Position numbers and translations under genes: made by a program. A stretch of DNA of 13,273 nt from an uncultured archaeon (GTDB taxonomy: Archaea > Asgardarchaeota > Lokiarchaeia > Sigyniarchaeales > SOKP01). The DNA is taken from NCBI GenBank assembly GCA_964493715.1, contig CAZBPC010000089.1, forward strand, positions 1 through 13,273, written 5' to 3'. The first letter of the stretch is position 1. Each line of letters starts with the position of its first letter. Under the pieces are notes generated by a model, which had not been told where the DNA came from, made no database searches, and saw nothing but the letters and a program-made list of their open reading frames with translations. Below, piece by piece: positions 1-12,414 of this stretch.

Positions 1-74
1 AGAAAAAATCAAATATCTAATCTTTTTTTTATTTTTACATAATTTTTATAGATTCGAATTAATTTGTTCACTCT

Positions 75-860
75 ATGAGAAAGGAAAGTTTGAAATCAGT
101 TGAAGTCACGCCAGATAATGAATTAATATTTTATAATTATATTAAAGATAATTTTTCAGAGTACTTATTTTTCCACGTTGATTATGCTCAATATTCAGAA
201 GATACTAAAATTTATATGGTTCTGGATAATAAGGCCAAGATTCATGGAATGTTGCTGAACTGGAAAGATCGAAGAATTCAATTGAGAGGTTCCTTCGAGA
301 GTCTTGAGCTTTTATTAAAGGATAATAATTTCAAGCCCATATCAATAACTGGATTTGAAGAACATAAGGGAATAATAACAAATTATTTTCCAGAATATAC
401 TAAGGAAACTGGGTTGTATCGCATGGGTATGAAAAAAGGGGAACAAAAGAATTTTGAGATGTATTCTTACAATATTTTATCAGATGCCAATAGAGAAGAG
501 ATCGCATCATTCATGAATATATGTGATCCAGAATATTGGGGTTCTGTTAAAACTGAAGACGTCTTGATTGATGATACTAATATTCCAATTGCTATAATTC
601 ATAACAATCAACTAATTTGTTTGACTCGGATTTGGAATTATGAAAATATCGGCTATTTCATGGTAGTAGGAACTCATCCAGATTATAGAAATAAAGGTTA
701 CGCCAGTTCCTTAATTTCCTCAGTATTAAATGGACTTCTGGTTGATAAAAAAGAATGTCTTATCACGGTTAGGGTTAATAATCCACCAGCAATACATACA
801 TATGAGAAGTTGGGTTTTTCAATCCGCAATACTCAATATTCATATGAAAGACCTACCTAA
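75..860 (+). CDS. GNAT family N-acetyltransferase (C-terminal GNAT domain)
   Basis: 261-aa ORF with acetyl-CoA binding motif A (VGTHPDYRNKGYAS) and motif B (VRVNNPPAIHTYEKLGF). Confidence 0.9.
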   Translation: MRKESLKSVEVTPDNELIFYNYIKDNFSEYLFFHVDYAQYSEDTKIYMVLDNKAKIHGMLLNWKDRRIQLRGSFESLELLLKDNNFKPISITGFEEHKGIITNYFPEYTKETGLYRMGMKKGEQKNFEMYSYNILSDANREEIASFMNICDPEYWGSVKTEDVLIDDTNIPIAIIHNNQLICLTRIWNYENIGYFMVVGTHPDYRNKGYASSLISSVLNGLLVDKKECLITVRVNNPPAIHTYEKLGFSIRNTQYSYERPT

Positions 861-998
861 ATATCAAACTCTAGCTTCATATGAGAAAAATTGCTAATTT
901 TATTGCCATTAGTGTAAAAATAATCATACAAAATATTTATTTAACAAAAAATTGAATATGATTAATTACCATTTCAATTAAAAAAAGTGGGATTTTAA

Positions 999-2391
999 AT
1001 GAGTAAAAAAGAATCTAGTACGGGTAAAAAAGCTTTGTTTTATAGTTTTGGCCAGATAAGTGATATCACTGCATATCAGTCATTTATATTACTAACATTC
1101 ACTTTTTATTTTGCGATAGTGGGAATTGAAACATGGTTAATGGTTCTTGGCTTTATACTGTGGTCGATATGGAATGCATTCAACGATCCGATAATGGGTT
1201 ATCTATCCGATAGAACACACACGAAATGGGGCCGACGAATGCCATATATCATCGGTGCATTTATTCCTTTGGCAATAGTGATGCCATTAATATATACACC
1301 CCCCATTTCATACGGAATAACTGGTCAAATCGCGAATTTTTCCTATTTTTTAATAATAATTGTACTATTTGAGCTATTTTATACCATCTTTAGCTTGAAT
1401 TTAACTTCACTCTTCCCTGAAGTTTTCATGACTGAAAAAGAACGGACACAAGCTAACAATATTCGTCAAGTTTTTACAATTATTGGATTAATCGTTGCAT
1501 TTATATTACCAGGATTAATAATTTCATCCTATACTAAACCAAGTTCCTTACCACAATTCCAGCTGTTTGGTATTATTGCAGGAATCATCATAGTTTGCAT
1601 GTTCTCTCATATTTTTAATCTTTGGTCCAAAGGAAAGAACTGAATTTCAGCAAGATTACATGAATGCTTTCAGCTTGTTCAAAACAATAAAAAATTGCTT
1701 TAAAAGTAAATCATTTCGATGGTATATCATCGCTGAGACGTGCGTGTGGTTCGTATATGGCATGCTTCCTACGATCGTGCCATTATATGCGCAAAATGTA
1801 CTGCATGTGGAATCAGGAATCTTAACTTCTGTGCTACTAGCAACTACATTTTTATCTGCGACGCTATTCATTACCTTTCTATGGAAACCTTTAGTGCGAA
1901 AAATTGGGAATAGAAAGGCCTGGATTATATCTTTTATAATCTGGATTTTCGCTCTTTCCGGAACTATGTTTATAAGCGAATTTATTGGAGGGTTAATTGT
2001 CTTCTTTTTGATCGGAATCGGTTTATCGGGATCACTTTTTATTATCGATCTAGTGGTTGCTGATATTGTTGATGAAGATGAGATTGCTACAGGCATGAGA
2101 CGAGAAGCAGGATATTATGGCGTCAATGCGTTCGTTCTTCGATTTTCAAATGTTTTAGTCATTTTAGCTATTGGATTTGTTTTCTCAGGAACTGATTGGA
2201 GTGGAGGATATGTACCCAACCCTGGGATAGACGTGGAAATAGGGTTAAAAATACTAATGTTTGCCCTTCCCGCCATTGCATTAGTAATTGCGGCATTAGC
2301 AATATATAAATATCCATTACATGGAGAAAAACTTCTTAAAGTAAAAGAAAAACGCGAAATAATACATGATCAAAAAAAATCACGAATATAA
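999..2391 (+). pseudogene. GPH/MelB-like MFS sugar:cation symporter, frameshifted by one extra base at about 1594-1596 (pseudogene or sequencing error)
   Basis: ORF 999-1643 has the GPH N-half (WNAFNDPIMGYLSDRTHTKWGRRMPY). ORF 1660-2391 has the C-half (ADIVDEDEIATGMRREAGYYG). Deleting one T in gtttgca joins them as ...IIIV-ACSLIFLIFGPKERTEFQQDY-MNAF..., restoring a membrane helix and the central loop. Confidence 0.85.
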
Positions 2392-2517
2392 TGTGATATT
2401 TTTTTCTCTTTTTTTCTATTTTCTTTATTAAGCTTAGCCGTTCAAGACCTTGGTGAGAGCAAGTAAAAGAATAAAAAGAAATTAACAAAAAAAATTAGTT
2501 TTTACATATTAAATACG

Positions 2518-2556
2518 TTAAAATTCATATCCACACTTTTTACAAACGTGCTTCTT
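2518..2556 (-). repeat. Orphan second copy of the last 12 codons plus stop (KKHVCKKCGYEF*) of the coiled-coil/Zn-ribbon gene; degenerate direct repeat of 3293-3331
   Basis: Minus strand reads AAG AAG CAC GTT TGT AAA AAG TGT GGA TAT GAA TTT TAA, versus AAA AAG CAC GTA TGC AAA AAA TGC GGT TAC GAG TTT TGA at 3331-3293. 30/39 nt are identical and all 9 differences are silent. Confidence 0.95.
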
Positions 2557-3124
2557 AAAAAAATCGAGCAGAATTAAGCCAAATTTCACAATCACAATGA
2601 CCACCATAGTATCGGCAAAATCTCAGAAATTGATCTTGAATTTCTGGGCTTATCCCCATTTTTGTTAGAATTGCTCTAGAAAGAGGGTAAGAGTCGCCAC
2701 CACATTTGATGCCCGAACGCGTTAATCGAGTGATTCCAATGCCCTCACCTCCTTTCAATCGGTTGAAAAATTCTTCAATTTCACTCTTATTCATCTGAAG
2801 TTCATTTCTTAGTTTATCATAATACACGATTTCAGAATTACATTCAATACAGAGCCATTGTCTCATATCAGGACGATATATCATATCTTTATCTCTATGA
2901 CCGCAATGAAGACAGAGACAAATGGACAATTCCTCAAATAGACATAATTCGGATCTATTTCTTAGAATTATTGTAGATCGATCATCATCCCAATTATGTT
3001 TCTCTATTTGTTCGGTTAAAGAACTCCAAATATCATCAATCCACAATTGTAGTATGTTTCTTAATTCATTCCGAATTCTTCTCAGTCGGGGATTCTTAAT
3101 GATAATTGCTCTCTCTTTTTTCAT
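2555..3124 (-). CDS. Cys-rich protein: central CxxC...CxxC zinc finger plus C-terminal DUF2695-like domain
   Basis: 189-aa ORF with CLHC...WLCIEC and a C-terminal C...GGHCDCEIWLN matching the GGxCDCE(V/I)xxN signature I associate with DUF2695. Its TAA overlaps the orphan repeat. Confidence 0.7.
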   Translation of the reverse strand: MKKERAIIIKNPRLRRIRNELRNILQLWIDDIWSSLTEQIEKHNWDDDRSTIILRNRSELCLFEELSICLCLHCGHRDKDMIYRPDMRQWLCIECNSEIVYYDKLRNELQMNKSEIEEFFNRLKGGEGIGITRLTRSGIKCGGDSYPLSRAILTKMGISPEIQDQFLRFCRYYGGHCDCEIWLNSARFF

Positions 3125-3260
3125 GGTATTAATCTTTTAAAAATTTTGCAATCTTTTTTCATCAATATTCAATTTCAATTCTAATACTCTCTTAATATTA
3201 TCAATACTTAATTAAGACTCTCTATAGTAAGTTTAATCAACTTTGATTAAGATTTTTAAT

Positions 3261-3278
3261 AAAAATAGAAAAAAAAAC
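3261..3278 (-). terminator. Oligo-T tract, probable archaeal terminator after the coiled-coil gene
   Basis: A-rich run on + (T-rich on -) starting about 15 nt after the TGA at 3293. A similar tract lies at about 2465-2494 after the orphan tail copy. Confidence 0.45.
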
Positions 3279-3292
3279 AGATTATTATTCTT

Positions 3293-4234
3293 TCAAAACT
3301 CGTAACCGCATTTTTTGCATACGTGCTTTTTGGCATACAGTTCCCAAAATATTAGAAATTAATAGATTTTTGGAATATGCCCCACGTAACTCAAAACTTT
3401 GCCTTTATCTTCAATTTGTTTAATATCATGGCCTACAGCACCACACATGGGGCACGTGGTCCTCTCATCGCTAGCAAAGCCACCCGAACCAATATCAGGG
3501 GGTTTTAATTCACTTAGTTCGGTTTCAACTTCTTCAATGAGAGAAGTCTGGGCTTCAATCAGTTTTTCTTTCTCACCAATAGAACCCGATAAATTCTGAA
3601 TTTCTCCATTTTTTTGTATCAATAAATCATTAAATTCTTGCAGTTGGGATTGAAGATTTGCATTCTCTGATTGAGCAGATTCAAGTTTGCTTGTTAATTC
3701 TTGGATTTTATTTGAAAGTTGACTAACTTGCTCTTGAGATTCTGAACCAAGACTCATGGCGTTATTTAATTCACTTTTCAAATCATCCAAATCAGCAGTT
3801 AGACTAGCATTTTTTTCATTTAAAGCGGATACTTCGCTCTCTTTTGCTGCATAATTTGTTTCCAATTCACTTATTTTCGAATTTGCTCCAGTCAGATTTG
3901 TTTGTAACCCATCCATTTCTGCCGTAATTCTAGCAATCGTTTGCGTTTTACTCTCGATATCTTTCATACTTTGTTCGAGAGAGGATTTAACTGATGCCAA
4001 TTCAGTTTTAACGCCATCCAAAGTAGATTTGGTTGAATTATGCTCGTTAGTTTCCTTATCTAAATTTTTTGTAGTATCTTGGAGCGTTTTTTGTGTTTGA
4101 GTAAGCTCTTTTCGGTGTTCACTTACTTGTTGTTCAAGATCATTAACTTTAGCCCTCAGATCCAGCAAGAATCTGCCTTCAACCTTCTGAGTTTTGTCTG
4201 GTTTGGCTTCTGCGGCGGCCCAATCAATCGACAT
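3293..4234 (-). CDS. Long coiled-coil protein with C-terminal zinc ribbon (CPMC...CKKC), interrupted by a 30-nt putative intron; about 303 aa if spliced
   Basis: Heptad-rich Q/E/K/L/S region, then CPMCGAVGHDIKQIEDKGKVLSYVGHIP. The ORF track stops at TAA 3359-3361, but the same frame continues to YAKKHVCKKCGYEF-TGA (3293), supplying the second CxxC. Likely start is ATG 4234 (MSIDW); GTG 4243 is the alternative. Confidence 0.85.
3340..3369 (-). other. Putative 30-nt BHB-type (tRNA-endonuclease-spliced) intron in a protein-coding gene
   Basis: Insert AAAUCUAUUAAUUUCUAAUAUUUUGGGAAC contains an in-frame UAA. It folds with a 4-bp central helix UUCC/GGGA, 5' bulge AAA, 3' bulge ACUG, flanking exon helix GGCAUA/UAUGCC and an internal hairpin. 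Removal gives CCA A|UG UAU = ...HIPMYAKKHVC. Confidence 0.7.
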
Positions 4235-4429
4235 ATTTTTCACACTCGTAATAGAATATTGTTGATTCTAATTTGATCATTTTGATTAAATAAACAATAA
4301 TTGGATATATATTTAATTTTAATGAAAAAAAAAATTCTGGAGCTTCTTTTTCAAGATAATTTTTATTAGAACTTTAAAAACATAAATTTTGAATAAAACA
4401 ATAAGGCTCTAAAAAAAGATAATTCGCTA

Positions 4430-5080
4430 ATGATAAATCTACAAGCAAATTTTGAAAAAGCATTACAAAAATTACAGAGGATTTTTAAAAATTCGTTTTA
4501 TTCCGCTCACATTATTGATGTTGACGCCTTACCAATCGCTAATTGCATATCTGACGGAACTAAAATCGATCCTGATGAAATATGTGCAAAAGCTTGCTCA
4601 ATAATTTCGGAACTCGATAATATTAATGATAAATTAGTGGGAAAAACGTATGACTCATCATTGATCAAAAATCGAGATTTTATATATCTTCTTTCACAAA
4701 TTCCTGCCGATTTACGGCTTCTCATAATTTTAAGAAACAATGAAAATGATTTTACATTGAACAATGTCAATAAGATAGCGAAAGAATTAGGAGGAATGGT
4801 GGACAGCATAATCCTTGATGAAAATGCTATTTCAGACATTTTTTCTGATTTTGATTTTCTTCCAAAAGATAACCTTCACATATTGAATTCAGAGGATATA
4901 CTTATTAGAAAAATCATTATTGAATTAAAAAGCATTTTAACGCCCTCTAGTTATAAAACCCGATTTATCAAGGAATTTCAAACAAATTCTATTAATATCA
5001 ACAGCAATAACGAGAATTTGCGTTTTATATTACGAATGATGAAGCTTTTAAAAAATAATTACAATTTTCATCTGAGATAG
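4430..5080 (+). CDS. Roadblock/LC7 (MglB-like) domain protein with C-terminal extension
   Basis: N-terminal pattern of helix, SAHIIDVDALPIA, helix DPDEICAKACSII, then beta strands (SSLIK, FIYLLSQ, LRLLIIL) typical of the roadblock fold; recognised by eye only. Confidence 0.6.
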   Translation: MINLQANFEKALQKLQRIFKNSFYSAHIIDVDALPIANCISDGTKIDPDEICAKACSIISELDNINDKLVGKTYDSSLIKNRDFIYLLSQIPADLRLLIILRNNENDFTLNNVNKIAKELGGMVDSIILDENAISDIFSDFDFLPKDNLHILNSEDILIRKIIIELKSILTPSSYKTRFIKEFQTNSININSNNENLRFILRMMKLLKNNYNFHLR

Positions 5081-5201
5081 CTCATTCCTCATAGTTTTCT
5101 AATTTTTAGTTTTATTTCCATAAAGGTATAAAAGATATATATTAAGGGCTGATCATATATTGATATATTGAAGAATAGAGGCATGAAACAAGTTTTTTAT
5201 C

Positions 5202-6044
5202 ATGGAAAGCGAGATTTTAGATAAGAAAGTTCAAATAATATCTACCTCAGGAGTGTATAAAACACCCTTCACGCTGATAATAATATTACAATTATATATA
5301 GGATTGTTAATTACCATTTTTGCGAATTTATGGTATTGGAATAATTTGTATTATTATTTTACGAATCAGATTATATTTCCATTTCCGATAAATGATTCAT
5401 TAATAGAGCGCATATTGTTTATTTGCCTCATACCATTTAATATTTACGGATGTGTCTTTTTATTTGCTTTTTCAATTATTCTCTTCTCGGTTGTCATATT
5501 TAAGATTTTAAATAAATTATCTCCATCAAAGGAAGGAAATTTCTTGCGAGATAGTAAGGAATGGAAATATGTACATAGGAAATTTTGGACTGCGTATTTT
5601 CCTATTTGGTTAGCAAGAGCATTACCCCTACCGTGGGCCGATATTTTTGCGTATAGATTTTTTGGCTTACGTATCGGCAAAAATGTAGTCTTATACGAAG
5701 GATATGTAGATCCTTACTTTATTGAAATAGGAGATTTTACAATGACTTCGTTAAATATATGCATATTTTCTCATTTGATATATCAAGATAGATTGTTTAT
5801 CCAAAAAGTCAAAATTGGTGAAGCATGCGTAGTAGGACCTCAAACAATTGTTGCTCCTGGCACGCAAATGGAAGATAGAGCAATACTAGGCGCAAATAGT
5901 TACACTTCGATTGGTCAAAAATTGGAGAGTGATCTTATACATGTTGGGATCCCAGTTAATATTAAATTACCTTTACAATCAGTTGAAGACTCCCAACAGA
6001 AGGTCTCAAAGATAAAGGATACATCAAAGAAAATGGAGGACTGA
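5202..6044 (+). CDS. Membrane-anchored left-handed beta-helix (hexapeptide repeat) acyltransferase-like protein
   Basis: Two long hydrophobic segments, then FFGLRIGKNVV, IEIGDFT and VKIGEACVVGPQTIVAPGTQMEDRAILGANS hexapeptide repeats. Confidence 0.8.
   Translation: MESEILDKKVQIISTSGVYKTPFTLIIILQLYIGLLITIFANLWYWNNLYYYFTNQIIFPFPINDSLIERILFICLIPFNIYGCVFLFAFSIILFSVVIFKILNKLSPSKEGNFLRDSKEWKYVHRKFWTAYFPIWLARALPLPWADIFAYRFFGLRIGKNVVLYEGYVDPYFIEIGDFTMTSLNICIFSHLIYQDRLFIQKVKIGEACVVGPQTIVAPGTQMEDRAILGANSYTSIGQKLESDLIHVGIPVNIKLPLQSVEDSQQKVSKIKDTSKKMED
6035..6040 (+). promoter_or_regulatory. Shine-Dalgarno-like GGAGGA for the gene at 6048
   Basis: GGAGGA ends 7 nt before ATG 6048, inside the end of the upstream CDS, consistent with translational coupling. 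Confidence 0.5.
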
Positions 6045-12254: not shown

Positions 12255-12271
12255 ATTAGTGAAAGATTGAA

Positions 12272-12375
12272 CGCAGATGGAGGGATTCGAACCCCCGAGC
12301 GCTTTCACGCACCAGCTTTCTCCGTCACTTTTTATGCTCTCGAAGCTAGCGTCTTACCAACTAGGCTACATCTGC
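12272..12375 (-). tRNA. tRNA-Ser(CGA) with a 21-nt intron at 37/38 (about 12318-12338); CCA not encoded
   Basis: Acceptor stem GCAGAUG/CAUCUGC, discriminator G, anticodon stem CUAGC/GCUGG, loop UU-CGA-G|A, long variable arm GCGU-GAAA-GCGC and T arm GGGGG-UUCGAAU-CCCUC. Confidence 0.95.
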
Positions 12376-12414
12376 ATCTAGATAAATTCTTCAATTAGGT
12401 ATAGTTTAGTTGAA

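Follow-up and report, generated by a model that had tools for sequence, protein, structure and literature searches.

As of 2009, and within the sections of the source cited here, the cbf5 transcript of Crenarchaeota was the sole archaeal pre-mRNA with confirmed endonuclease-dependent splicing of the bulge-helix-bulge (BHB) type (PMC2738675). The tRNA genes of Asgard archaea are described, in the cited parts of two further sources, as heavily interrupted, with a two-subunit EndA in most such genomes (bioRxiv 10.64898/2026.10.13.758758; PMC11291895), and the route by which introns arrive in these genes is called open in the cited part of the first (bioRxiv 10.64898/2026.10.13.758758). The locus presented here lies in a 13,273-nt stretch of contig CAZBPC010000089.1 (assembly GCA_964493715.1) from an uncultured Asgard archaeon of the Lokiarchaeia, referred to below as the window. 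It concerns a gene, termed CC, whose product combines a coiled coil with a CPxCG...CKKC zinc ribbon at the C-terminus. The last codons of CC occur twice in the window and bracket a second gene, termed X, and a 30-nt insert that looks like an mRNA intron of the BHB type, spliced by EndA and RtcB, interrupts CC shortly before the first of these two tails. The duplicated and recoded tail marks a recent replacement of the CC 3' end. We consider it probable that a foreign fragment of about 0.8 kb, composed of the CC 3' end with its BHB mini-intron and of X, replaced the CC tail, and that the full protein needs EndA/RtcB splicing.

According to the cited sections, the cbf5 introns of Desulfurococcales and Sulfolobales resemble the present insert in being short interruptions of a coding gene with BHB-like junctions, whose exact excision restores the frame, in hosts with an EndA of the two-subunit type (PMC2738675). 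In contrast to them, the inserts described below belong to an Asgard-type lineage, are uniformly minimal (29-31 nt) and patchy among close relatives, and affect several genes (CC, rtcB, leuS, nadE and thiolases) and one small domain at four different sites; they are known from DNA sequence alone, whereas splicing of cbf5 is confirmed. The noncanonical tRNA introns of Asgard archaea, as portrayed in the cited parts, share the presumed machinery, the frequent recent gains and the BHB-permissive sites (bioRxiv 10.64898/2026.10.13.758758; PMC11291895); their hosts are tRNA genes, with no protein-coding host named in the cited parts, whereas the gene considered here is protein-coding and its intron-bearing exon visibly arrived by recombination. 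A full-text literature search of incomplete coverage, with supplements outside its reach, retrieved no account of protein-coding genes of Asgard archaea with BHB introns. On balance, we lean towards a picture in which minimal BHB introns of 29-31 nt are regular in the coding genes of this lineage (rtcB, leuS, nadE), the locus is a rare fossil of intron arrival in a foreign exon beside an intron-less resident exon, and X may be a new mobile gene that attaches to zinc-ribbon tails.

Replacement of gene ends is familiar from other systems. Prophages such as phage 21 and e14 integrate at the 3' end of icd in E. coli and supply a substitute end. In that case as in the present one, a silently diverged duplicate of the gene end brackets the insert, the incoming copy serves to complete the gene while displacing the resident one; unlike these prophages, the locus lacks an integrase and an identical att core, its insert spans 0.8 kb with one truncated cargo gene, and splicing would be needed. 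Homology-facilitated illegitimate recombination, observed in natural transformation, combines one homologous anchor with one illegitimate joint and likewise inserts foreign DNA beside the anchor; its application to this locus is suggested by the junctions only, and it leaves the repeated linkage of X to tails unexplained. Collaborative homing in phages associates an intron with a free-standing homing endonuclease gene. An interrupted target gene, a separate small gene just downstream, patchiness and co-transfer of the flanking exon are common to both situations, whereas X has no recognisable nuclease fold or motif and most intron-bearing CC genes lack X. The orphan C-terminal cassettes of polymorphic toxins and contact-dependent inhibition systems carry differing modules with immunity genes, in contrast to the two tails of the window, which encode the same peptide.

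Two tails of the CC gene and the empty allele

The tail peptide KKHVCKKCGYEF, followed by a stop, is encoded twice on the minus strand, at 3331-3293 and at 2556-2518, with a spacing of 775 nt. The copies differ at 9 of 39 nt, all silently: eight of the differences are at third codon positions and one is at base 2 of the stop (TGA vs TAA). Of the 117 single-base changes that are possible in the 13 codons, 17-18 are silent, and the chance of nine all-silent changes is about 3-5e-8; the longest run of identity between the tails is at most 8 bases. The downstream copy begins within the TAA of the X open reading frame (ORF, 3124..2555), in a different frame and without a start codon, and T-runs are found 3' of both copies. 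In all of this the preliminary description was reproduced exactly, from the duplicated peptide with its 775-bp spacing and nine silent differences to a downstream copy that lacks a start, begins in the stop of a DUF2695-like gene and has its own T-tract. Its view of the upstream copy as a contiguous gene end had to be abandoned: under translation table 11, a 294-aa ORF (4243..3359) terminates at TAA 3361-3359, ten codons before the upstream tail and in the same frame, and reading across this TAA yields ...GHIPKIY-stop-FLIFWELYAKKHVCKKCGYEF-stop.

CC is matched in 41 of 41 genomes of the genus (E <= 1e-10), the window's own included, and the C-terminus IPMYAKK[H/N][V/L]CKKC[G/S]YEF-stop is present in all 31 tails that were listed for loci of the genus. 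When the tail was written as a degenerate DNA pattern, it matched solely CC gene ends, in 31/41 genus genomes, and a control with the reversed pattern gave 0 matches across the same 41. Since the peptide is conserved while codons are free to vary in the genus, tails from two lineages are expected to display the same peptide with saturated silent differences, and the earlier proposal that the silent divergence originates from different lineages fits this nearly invariant peptide with variable codons. The donor lineage could not be read from the 39-nt pairwise differences, which are saturated and uninformative (tail 1: 6-10; tail 2: 2-11).

Table 1. Locations of the features of the locus, of the matches in relatives and of the related inserts (G, genome; C, contig; L, locus; plain numbers are window positions)
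Feature	Position	Strand	Description
MFS transporter gene	999..2391	+	major facilitator superfamily; convergent with CC; broken by a +1-nt frameshift near 1594
Eight-T run after resident tail	2487..2494	-	native intergenic DNA common to G022 and G006
Resident tail, orphaned	2518..2556	-	KKHVCKKCGYEF-stop; no start codon; frame differs from X
Gene X, 189 aa	2555..3124	-	helical hairpin, CxxC...CxxC zinc ribbon, helical DUF2695-like domain with YGGHCDCE
Nine-T run after incoming tail	3269..3277	-	candidate archaeal terminator; similar T-runs after CC tails in relatives
Incoming tail (exon 2)	3293..3339	-	TG TAT GCC + KKHVCKKCGYEF + TGA
Candidate BHB mini-intron	3340..3369	-	30 nt within Met codon (A, 30 nt, TG); carries TAA 3361-3359
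CC gene exon 1	3370..4243	-	coiled coil and first half of C-terminal zinc ribbon; ends CCA A (Pro and first base of Met codon)
Match in G022 (L057)	1008-2557		MFS gene, spacer and downstream tail, 1550 nt; 85.4% identity
Match in G022 (L057)	3396-3824		83.9% identity
Match in G006 (L031)	2269-2556		72.4% identity
Match in G006 (L031)	3372-4333		79.3% identity
Insert site A, CP^MCG			G019, G103; 30 nt; H 2/4; h 5-6/6; h' 6-7/8
Insert site B, GHIP^MYA			window (G000), G137; 30 nt; H 4/4; h' 6/8
Insert site C, MYAK^KHV			G157, G153, identical inserts; 30 nt; H 4/4; h' 7/8
Insert site D, KKYR^CGECG	L121		metagenome, gelsolin-domain zinc-ribbon gene; 31 nt; H 4/4; h' 8/8
Insert in leuS	C44:26027-26056 (L198)		30-31 nt; tRNA-synt_1g 4-46 and 48-135
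Insert in nadE	C39:8748-8777 (L199)		30-31 nt; NAD_synthase 3-143 and 144-242
Insert in thiolase	C120:4198-4228 (L200)		30-31 nt; Thiolase_C_1 1-48 and 51-143
Insert in thiolase	C28:23007-23036 (L201)		30-31 nt; Thiolase_C_1 14-49 and 52-143

The closest relatives of the window's CC are found in genomes G006 (80% identity) and G022 (81% over residues 135-316), and window positions 1-6000 were compared with the orthologous loci using blastn (Table 1). In both genomes, the CC gene runs as ...GHIP-ATG-TAY-GCN-AAA-AAA... straight into the tail, the spacer and the MFS gene. The empty allele that had been predicted, with the CC body joined via MYA to a tail of the 2518 type and to MFS, is therefore present in G022 (L057) and G006 (L031), and DNA was consequently inserted at the CC 3' end with displacement of the resident tail. 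The spacer behind the 2518 tail is homologous to the spacers of the two relatives, whereas that behind the 3293 tail is not. With respect to these alleles, the window contains about 814 nt of extra DNA (2557-3370) and has lost the resident MYA codons. This comparison identifies the 2556-2518 copy as the resident tail, which has become a fossil and displays zero nonsynonymous changes. The incoming tail and some 40 nt beyond it, nine-T run included, are 74-92% identical to CC 3' ends of other genera and, because of this resemblance, the tail is taken as a genuine CC end from elsewhere; the nine-T run is likely an archaeal terminator brought along with it. The suggestion that the inserted DNA supplies a replacement tail is thus retained for insertion and displacement, whereas replacement holds only if the 30-nt insert is spliced out, because this insert carries a stop.

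The two tails could also be the product of deletion or of assembly: the 2518-2556 tail would be what remains of a CC paralogue, once in tandem, after deletion of most of it or its replacement by X, or the window would be a chimera of two strains. Tandem CC paralogues are real in three genomes (G018, G021, G045). Against a lost paralogue, G022 and G006 possess a single-copy CC whose body matches the window CC and whose tail, spacer and MFS gene match the 2518 copy, so that a precise in-frame fusion would be required in these lineages, and the DNA between the two tails is free of CC-like coding sequence. Against a chimera, independent Logan contigs span both junctions with 0 differences. A single contig of run X1, a possible source of the DNA, covers 2300-3700, and in run X4 both junctions are bridged by a contig of 1061 nt (2365-3425); run X11, which belongs to another study, provides a contig over 2462-2826 that bridges the right junction, each of the three with 0 differences. 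The chimeric assembly that had been named as a possible refutation was therefore not upheld, and we regard this pair of explanations as very improbable. The joint of an empty allele was not seen in the contigs of four runs, a type of data that drops rare variants.

The 30-nt insert and its counterparts

The window reads CCA A, 30 nt, TG TAT GCC where the canonical sequence is CCA ATG TAT GCC, and exact deletion of 3369-3340 restores GHIPMYAKK and the ending GHIPMYAKKHVCKKCGYEF-stop, which is the genus consensus. In order to judge the insert, a BHB rule was calibrated on the tRNA introns of the host genome itself. The rule requires a 4-bp helix H with a 3-nt bulge on each strand, flanked by helix h (exon-exon) and/or helix h' (intron-intron); the cut falls between bulge bases 2 and 3, and the third bulge base is the first base of exon 2, with helix h coming next. 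Applied to the tRNA genes of contigs C2 and C24, it gave complete helices at the canonical position 37/38 (h 6/6, H 4/4). In the frame-restoring register, the window insert displays H 4/4 (UUCC/GGGA, one G-U pair) and h' 6/8 with both cuts between N2 and N3, and its RNAfold z is -2.74. Among 400,000 random 30/31-nt stretches of the same genome, H 4/4 occurs in 2.4% and its combination with h' of at least 6/8 in 0.12%.

Sister inserts were sought by comparing the 56-aa zinc-ribbon domain of G022 with 159 genomes of the class. Among the matches listed, six CC orthologues showed a match of 198 nt instead of 168 nt together with one stop; 410 further matches to the query exist beyond those listed. 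The insert-bearing CC orthologues outside the window (L148 in G019, L182 in G103, L180 in G157, L181 in G153 and L183 in G137) represent three genera and three sites, and a fourth site comes from a different gene (Table 1). Exact excision restores the consensus at all four sites, and H is 4/4 in the frame-restoring register for five of the seven insert-bearing sequences. The insert of G019 folds with z = -4.44. The inserts of the window and of G137 have a common 11-nt core, and two pairs of the inner stem are kept, by eye, through double changes from A-U to G-C. Neither X nor a second tail was found near the CC loci of G019, G103, G153 and G157 in the stretch examined, which for G103 ends about 276 nt past the tail; the contig of G137 terminates 93 nt past its CC tail. 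Because these four intron-bearing loci lack X and a second tail, the 30-nt insert is a property of some CC alleles and is separable from X. Reassignment of TAA as a sense codon was considered separately and ruled out, as sister inserts of 29/31 nt shift the frame and orthologues are devoid of the ten extra codons.

The host genome, with a completeness score of 100%, encodes two EndA paralogues (PF01974; contigs C5 and C58) and one RtcB (PF01139), all over the Pfam cut-off. ARAGORN called introns in 12 of the 27 tRNA genes, with some intron borders misplaced; one of its calls is a tRNA-Ser(CGA) at window positions 12271-12376 (-), with an intron of about 21 nt. The rtcB gene is itself interrupted by 29 nt (G000 C2:12134-12162, minus strand; L202), the Pfam profile being divided into 1-47 and 48-426. 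This insert shows H 4/4, h' 8/8 and h 4/6 in one of three equivalent registers, and its removal joins GGVGY to DINCGVRLL. The rtcB split is limited to G000 and G001 in a search of the 41 genus genomes, 34 of which gave an uninterrupted match. The genome was also scanned for stretches of 27-45 nt that combine H 4/4 with an h' score of 7/8 or more and interrupt a frame open after their removal. The window's CC insert falls slightly under this threshold. The scan returned 170 rows, probably chance or gene boundaries for the most part, from which inserts in leuS, nadE and two thiolase genes were selected by eye (Table 1); the Pfam profile coordinates are contiguous over the insert in all four. Among a further 165 rows, some, C145:329 and C28:34411 for instance, look real. 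A 100%-complete genome cannot plausibly have lost rtcB and leuS, and the simplest reading is that these inserts would be removed from the RNA. The broader outcome is a set of putative mini-introns spread over several protein-coding genes of this Asgard lineage.

Several points weigh against splicing of the CC insert. It corresponds to a relaxed HBh' form in which helix h is one base off register for a 30-nt excision, and the register with perfect h 6/6 and H 4/4 would excise 31 nt and shift the frame. The site-A inserts reach H 2/4 only, the score thresholds were set after the first cases had been seen, and a search of sequencing runs yielded runs of DNA only. The last of these points and the off-register helix would suit a different explanation, in which the insert is unspliced, leaving CC as a pseudogene cut short by TAA 3361-3359, with two dead tails and a fortuitous BHB-like fold; a frameshift has likewise broken the adjacent MFS gene. 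Such decay nevertheless has to contend with an insert size and architecture recurring at four sites in seven sequences with the frame restored exactly every time, with the inner stem kept by two double changes between G000 and G137 (by eye), with same-size inserts in the sole rtcB and leuS matches of a 100%-complete genome whose Pfam domains remain contiguous, and with an incoming tail free of nonsynonymous change. Loss of function is accordingly an improbable explanation, if less so than a lost paralogue or a chimera.

If these inserts are spliced, introns spliced by proteins would be found within ordinary and essential genes in relatives of the eukaryotic ancestor, and gene callers would truncate or split such genes, CC, rtcB, leuS, nadE and two thiolases being miscalled in this genome. 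Intron arrival in archaea would also become testable, as the old and the new exon stand side by side with the empty allele available in relatives.

Gene X, its junctions and its linkage to zinc-ribbon tails

X is the sole gene in the inserted DNA, where ORF and Pfam analysis revealed no integrase, transposase or recombinase; no terminal repeats surround it. Its match to DUF2695 (PF10905) is weak (23.2 bits vs a Pfam cut-off of 25, residues 145-184), and a profile of X homologues matched 889 proteins, many of which contain the DUF2695-like module alone. The AlphaFold2 (AF2) model is all-helical with a zinc ribbon (pLDDT, the predicted local distance difference test, 93.9), and a Foldseek search with it gave 0 matches at E <= 0.001 in PDB or BFVD. 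No nuclease fold or motif of the LAGLIDADG, HNH, GIY-YIG or PD-(D/E)xK type was recognised from the model and the PDB/BFVD search, although the fold may be a new one, and the His following the first CxxC is variable among homologues. PHROGs, a PDB sequence profile search, the ESM Atlas and PADLOC provided no lead to a function, the best PADLOC match (PDC-S64, E 0.002) being restricted to the zinc ribbon part.

The two junctions of the insert are dissimilar and have no identical core. The left one is seamless within CC, and the right one places a truncated X on the KK codons of the resident tail: X ends ...ARFF-stop where its homologues end ...PRF[FL]E[DN]-stop, so that the last 2-3 codons are lost, and the resident tail lends its first two bases to the TAA stop of X. 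Because X is cut short there, the right junction does not fit a defined element end and looks like an illegitimate join. The preliminary description had noted that no integrase, transposase or terminal repeats are visible, which is upheld for an insert holding X alone; its comparison with an integrative element at an att site is not supported, in view of the missing integrase, the missing identical core and the truncation of X. A scan for sigma-70 promoters and hairpin terminators remained at chance level, with models not suited to archaea.

The favoured sequence of events can be summarized as follows. The resident CC gene of an Asgard-type archaeon would have acquired a foreign fragment of about 0.8 kb, consisting of the last 15 CC codons of another lineage, with the Met codon split by a 30-nt mini-intron of the BHB type and followed by its own terminator, and of the neighbouring accessory gene X. 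The left side may have been joined seamlessly through homologous exchange within CC, and the right side by an illegitimate join of X, short of its last 2-3 codons, to the KK codons of the resident tail. The resident 39-nt tail would thereby have been pushed 775 nt downstream, where it is presumably untranslated. EndA would then cut and RtcB ligate the mRNA, removing the 30-nt insert and giving the full CC protein. The locus also shows a conserved gene end swapped by recombination without a recognisable recombinase.

Three results count against this course of events. Identities to G006 and G022 in 60-nt blocks reach background level at some points, without consistency, and no left border of the foreign tract could be placed. 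A contiguous donor with CC, intron, tail and X in this order was absent from the 159 class genomes, which gave separate CC-tail and X matches only. Finally, the adjacency of X and tails is too frequent for a one-off accident and favours a mechanism more specific than simple illegitimate recombination. The locus in this respect points to the uncharacterised X, strongly linked to the zinc-ribbon tails of Asgard coiled-coil and gelsolin-domain proteins.

A more specific mechanism would be available if X, with or without a small upstream gene Y, were a site-specific mobile cassette targeting the DNA that encodes MY[AG]KK..C in zinc-ribbon tails. Such a cassette would move by homing-like break and repair or by a recombinase not yet recognised, and would bring a recoded tail, possibly immunised by the intron, leaving orphan tails as footprints. 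Full-length X is patchy, with copies in 3/41 genus genomes: G000, G007 (48% identity) and G051 (36%). All three of these loci adjoin a zinc-ribbon tail, compared with 0 of 34 loci holding only the N- or C-terminal module, and over genomes and metagenomes a tail or orphan fragment is located at most 1.5 kb from X at 8 of 19 full-length loci. The preliminary description had proposed a search for extra gene ends around X homologues elsewhere, and extra or orphan tails were indeed found at three loci. In G051, three CC tail copies surround an inverted X and the extra copies begin at the ATG of MYA; at L116, X, which is 72% identical, stands between an orphan tail fragment and a complete zinc-ribbon gene of the gelsolin type; at L122, an orphan tail stands behind X. 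The order intron-tail-X recurs at L121 in another zinc-ribbon family. Set against a cassette are an insert devoid of integrase, transposase or known nuclease, a confident X model lacking a fold match in PDB or BFVD (E <= 0.001) or a useful PADLOC or PHROGs match, and the truncation of X at the right junction. In addition, X occurs in either orientation relative to the tails, terminal repeats are absent, and intron and X are separable at the four intron-bearing CC loci (G019, G103, G153, G157) that have neither X nor a second tail. A mobile cassette is on these grounds an unlikely explanation, yet less so than the other alternatives.

A number of minor observations concern X, its surroundings and the neighbours of CC. 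The G051 locus (L041; G051:C193:8085-11799) contains at 2362-3715 a tandemly repeated native tail-spacer unit, and close to where the MFS gene terminates, the inverted X homologue is inserted together with the small gene Y; the third tail is cut off by the contig end, and a search for its continuation past this copy found none. Tandem CC paralogues whose tails are of identical type lie about 1050-1070 nt apart at L039 (G018), L045 (G045) and L049 (G021). In the window, the MFS_2 Pfam profile is split over two ORFs (positions 22-186 and 210-425), whereas the G022 orthologue is intact at 451 aa in the alignment; the window MFS gene is either a pseudogene or affected by a sequencing error. Other neighbours identified by Pfam, a Gtr1/RagA-type GTPase and ribosomal protein S25e, fit an Asgard host. 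Directly upstream of X in seven loci stands a small gene, or the C-terminal domain of large proteins of 839-1235 aa, ending in ...LHLYVHLEDIDFIRE.WG.W.P (L106, L108, L118, L119, L120, L122 and L041 3409-3582). A 257-aa gelsolin-repeat protein (Pfam E 8.7e-9) with a similar zinc-ribbon end, ...DYPRMYGKKYRCGECGVEWREK-stop, is often convergent with X (L109:1205-1975, L106:4657-5430, L116 and L121).

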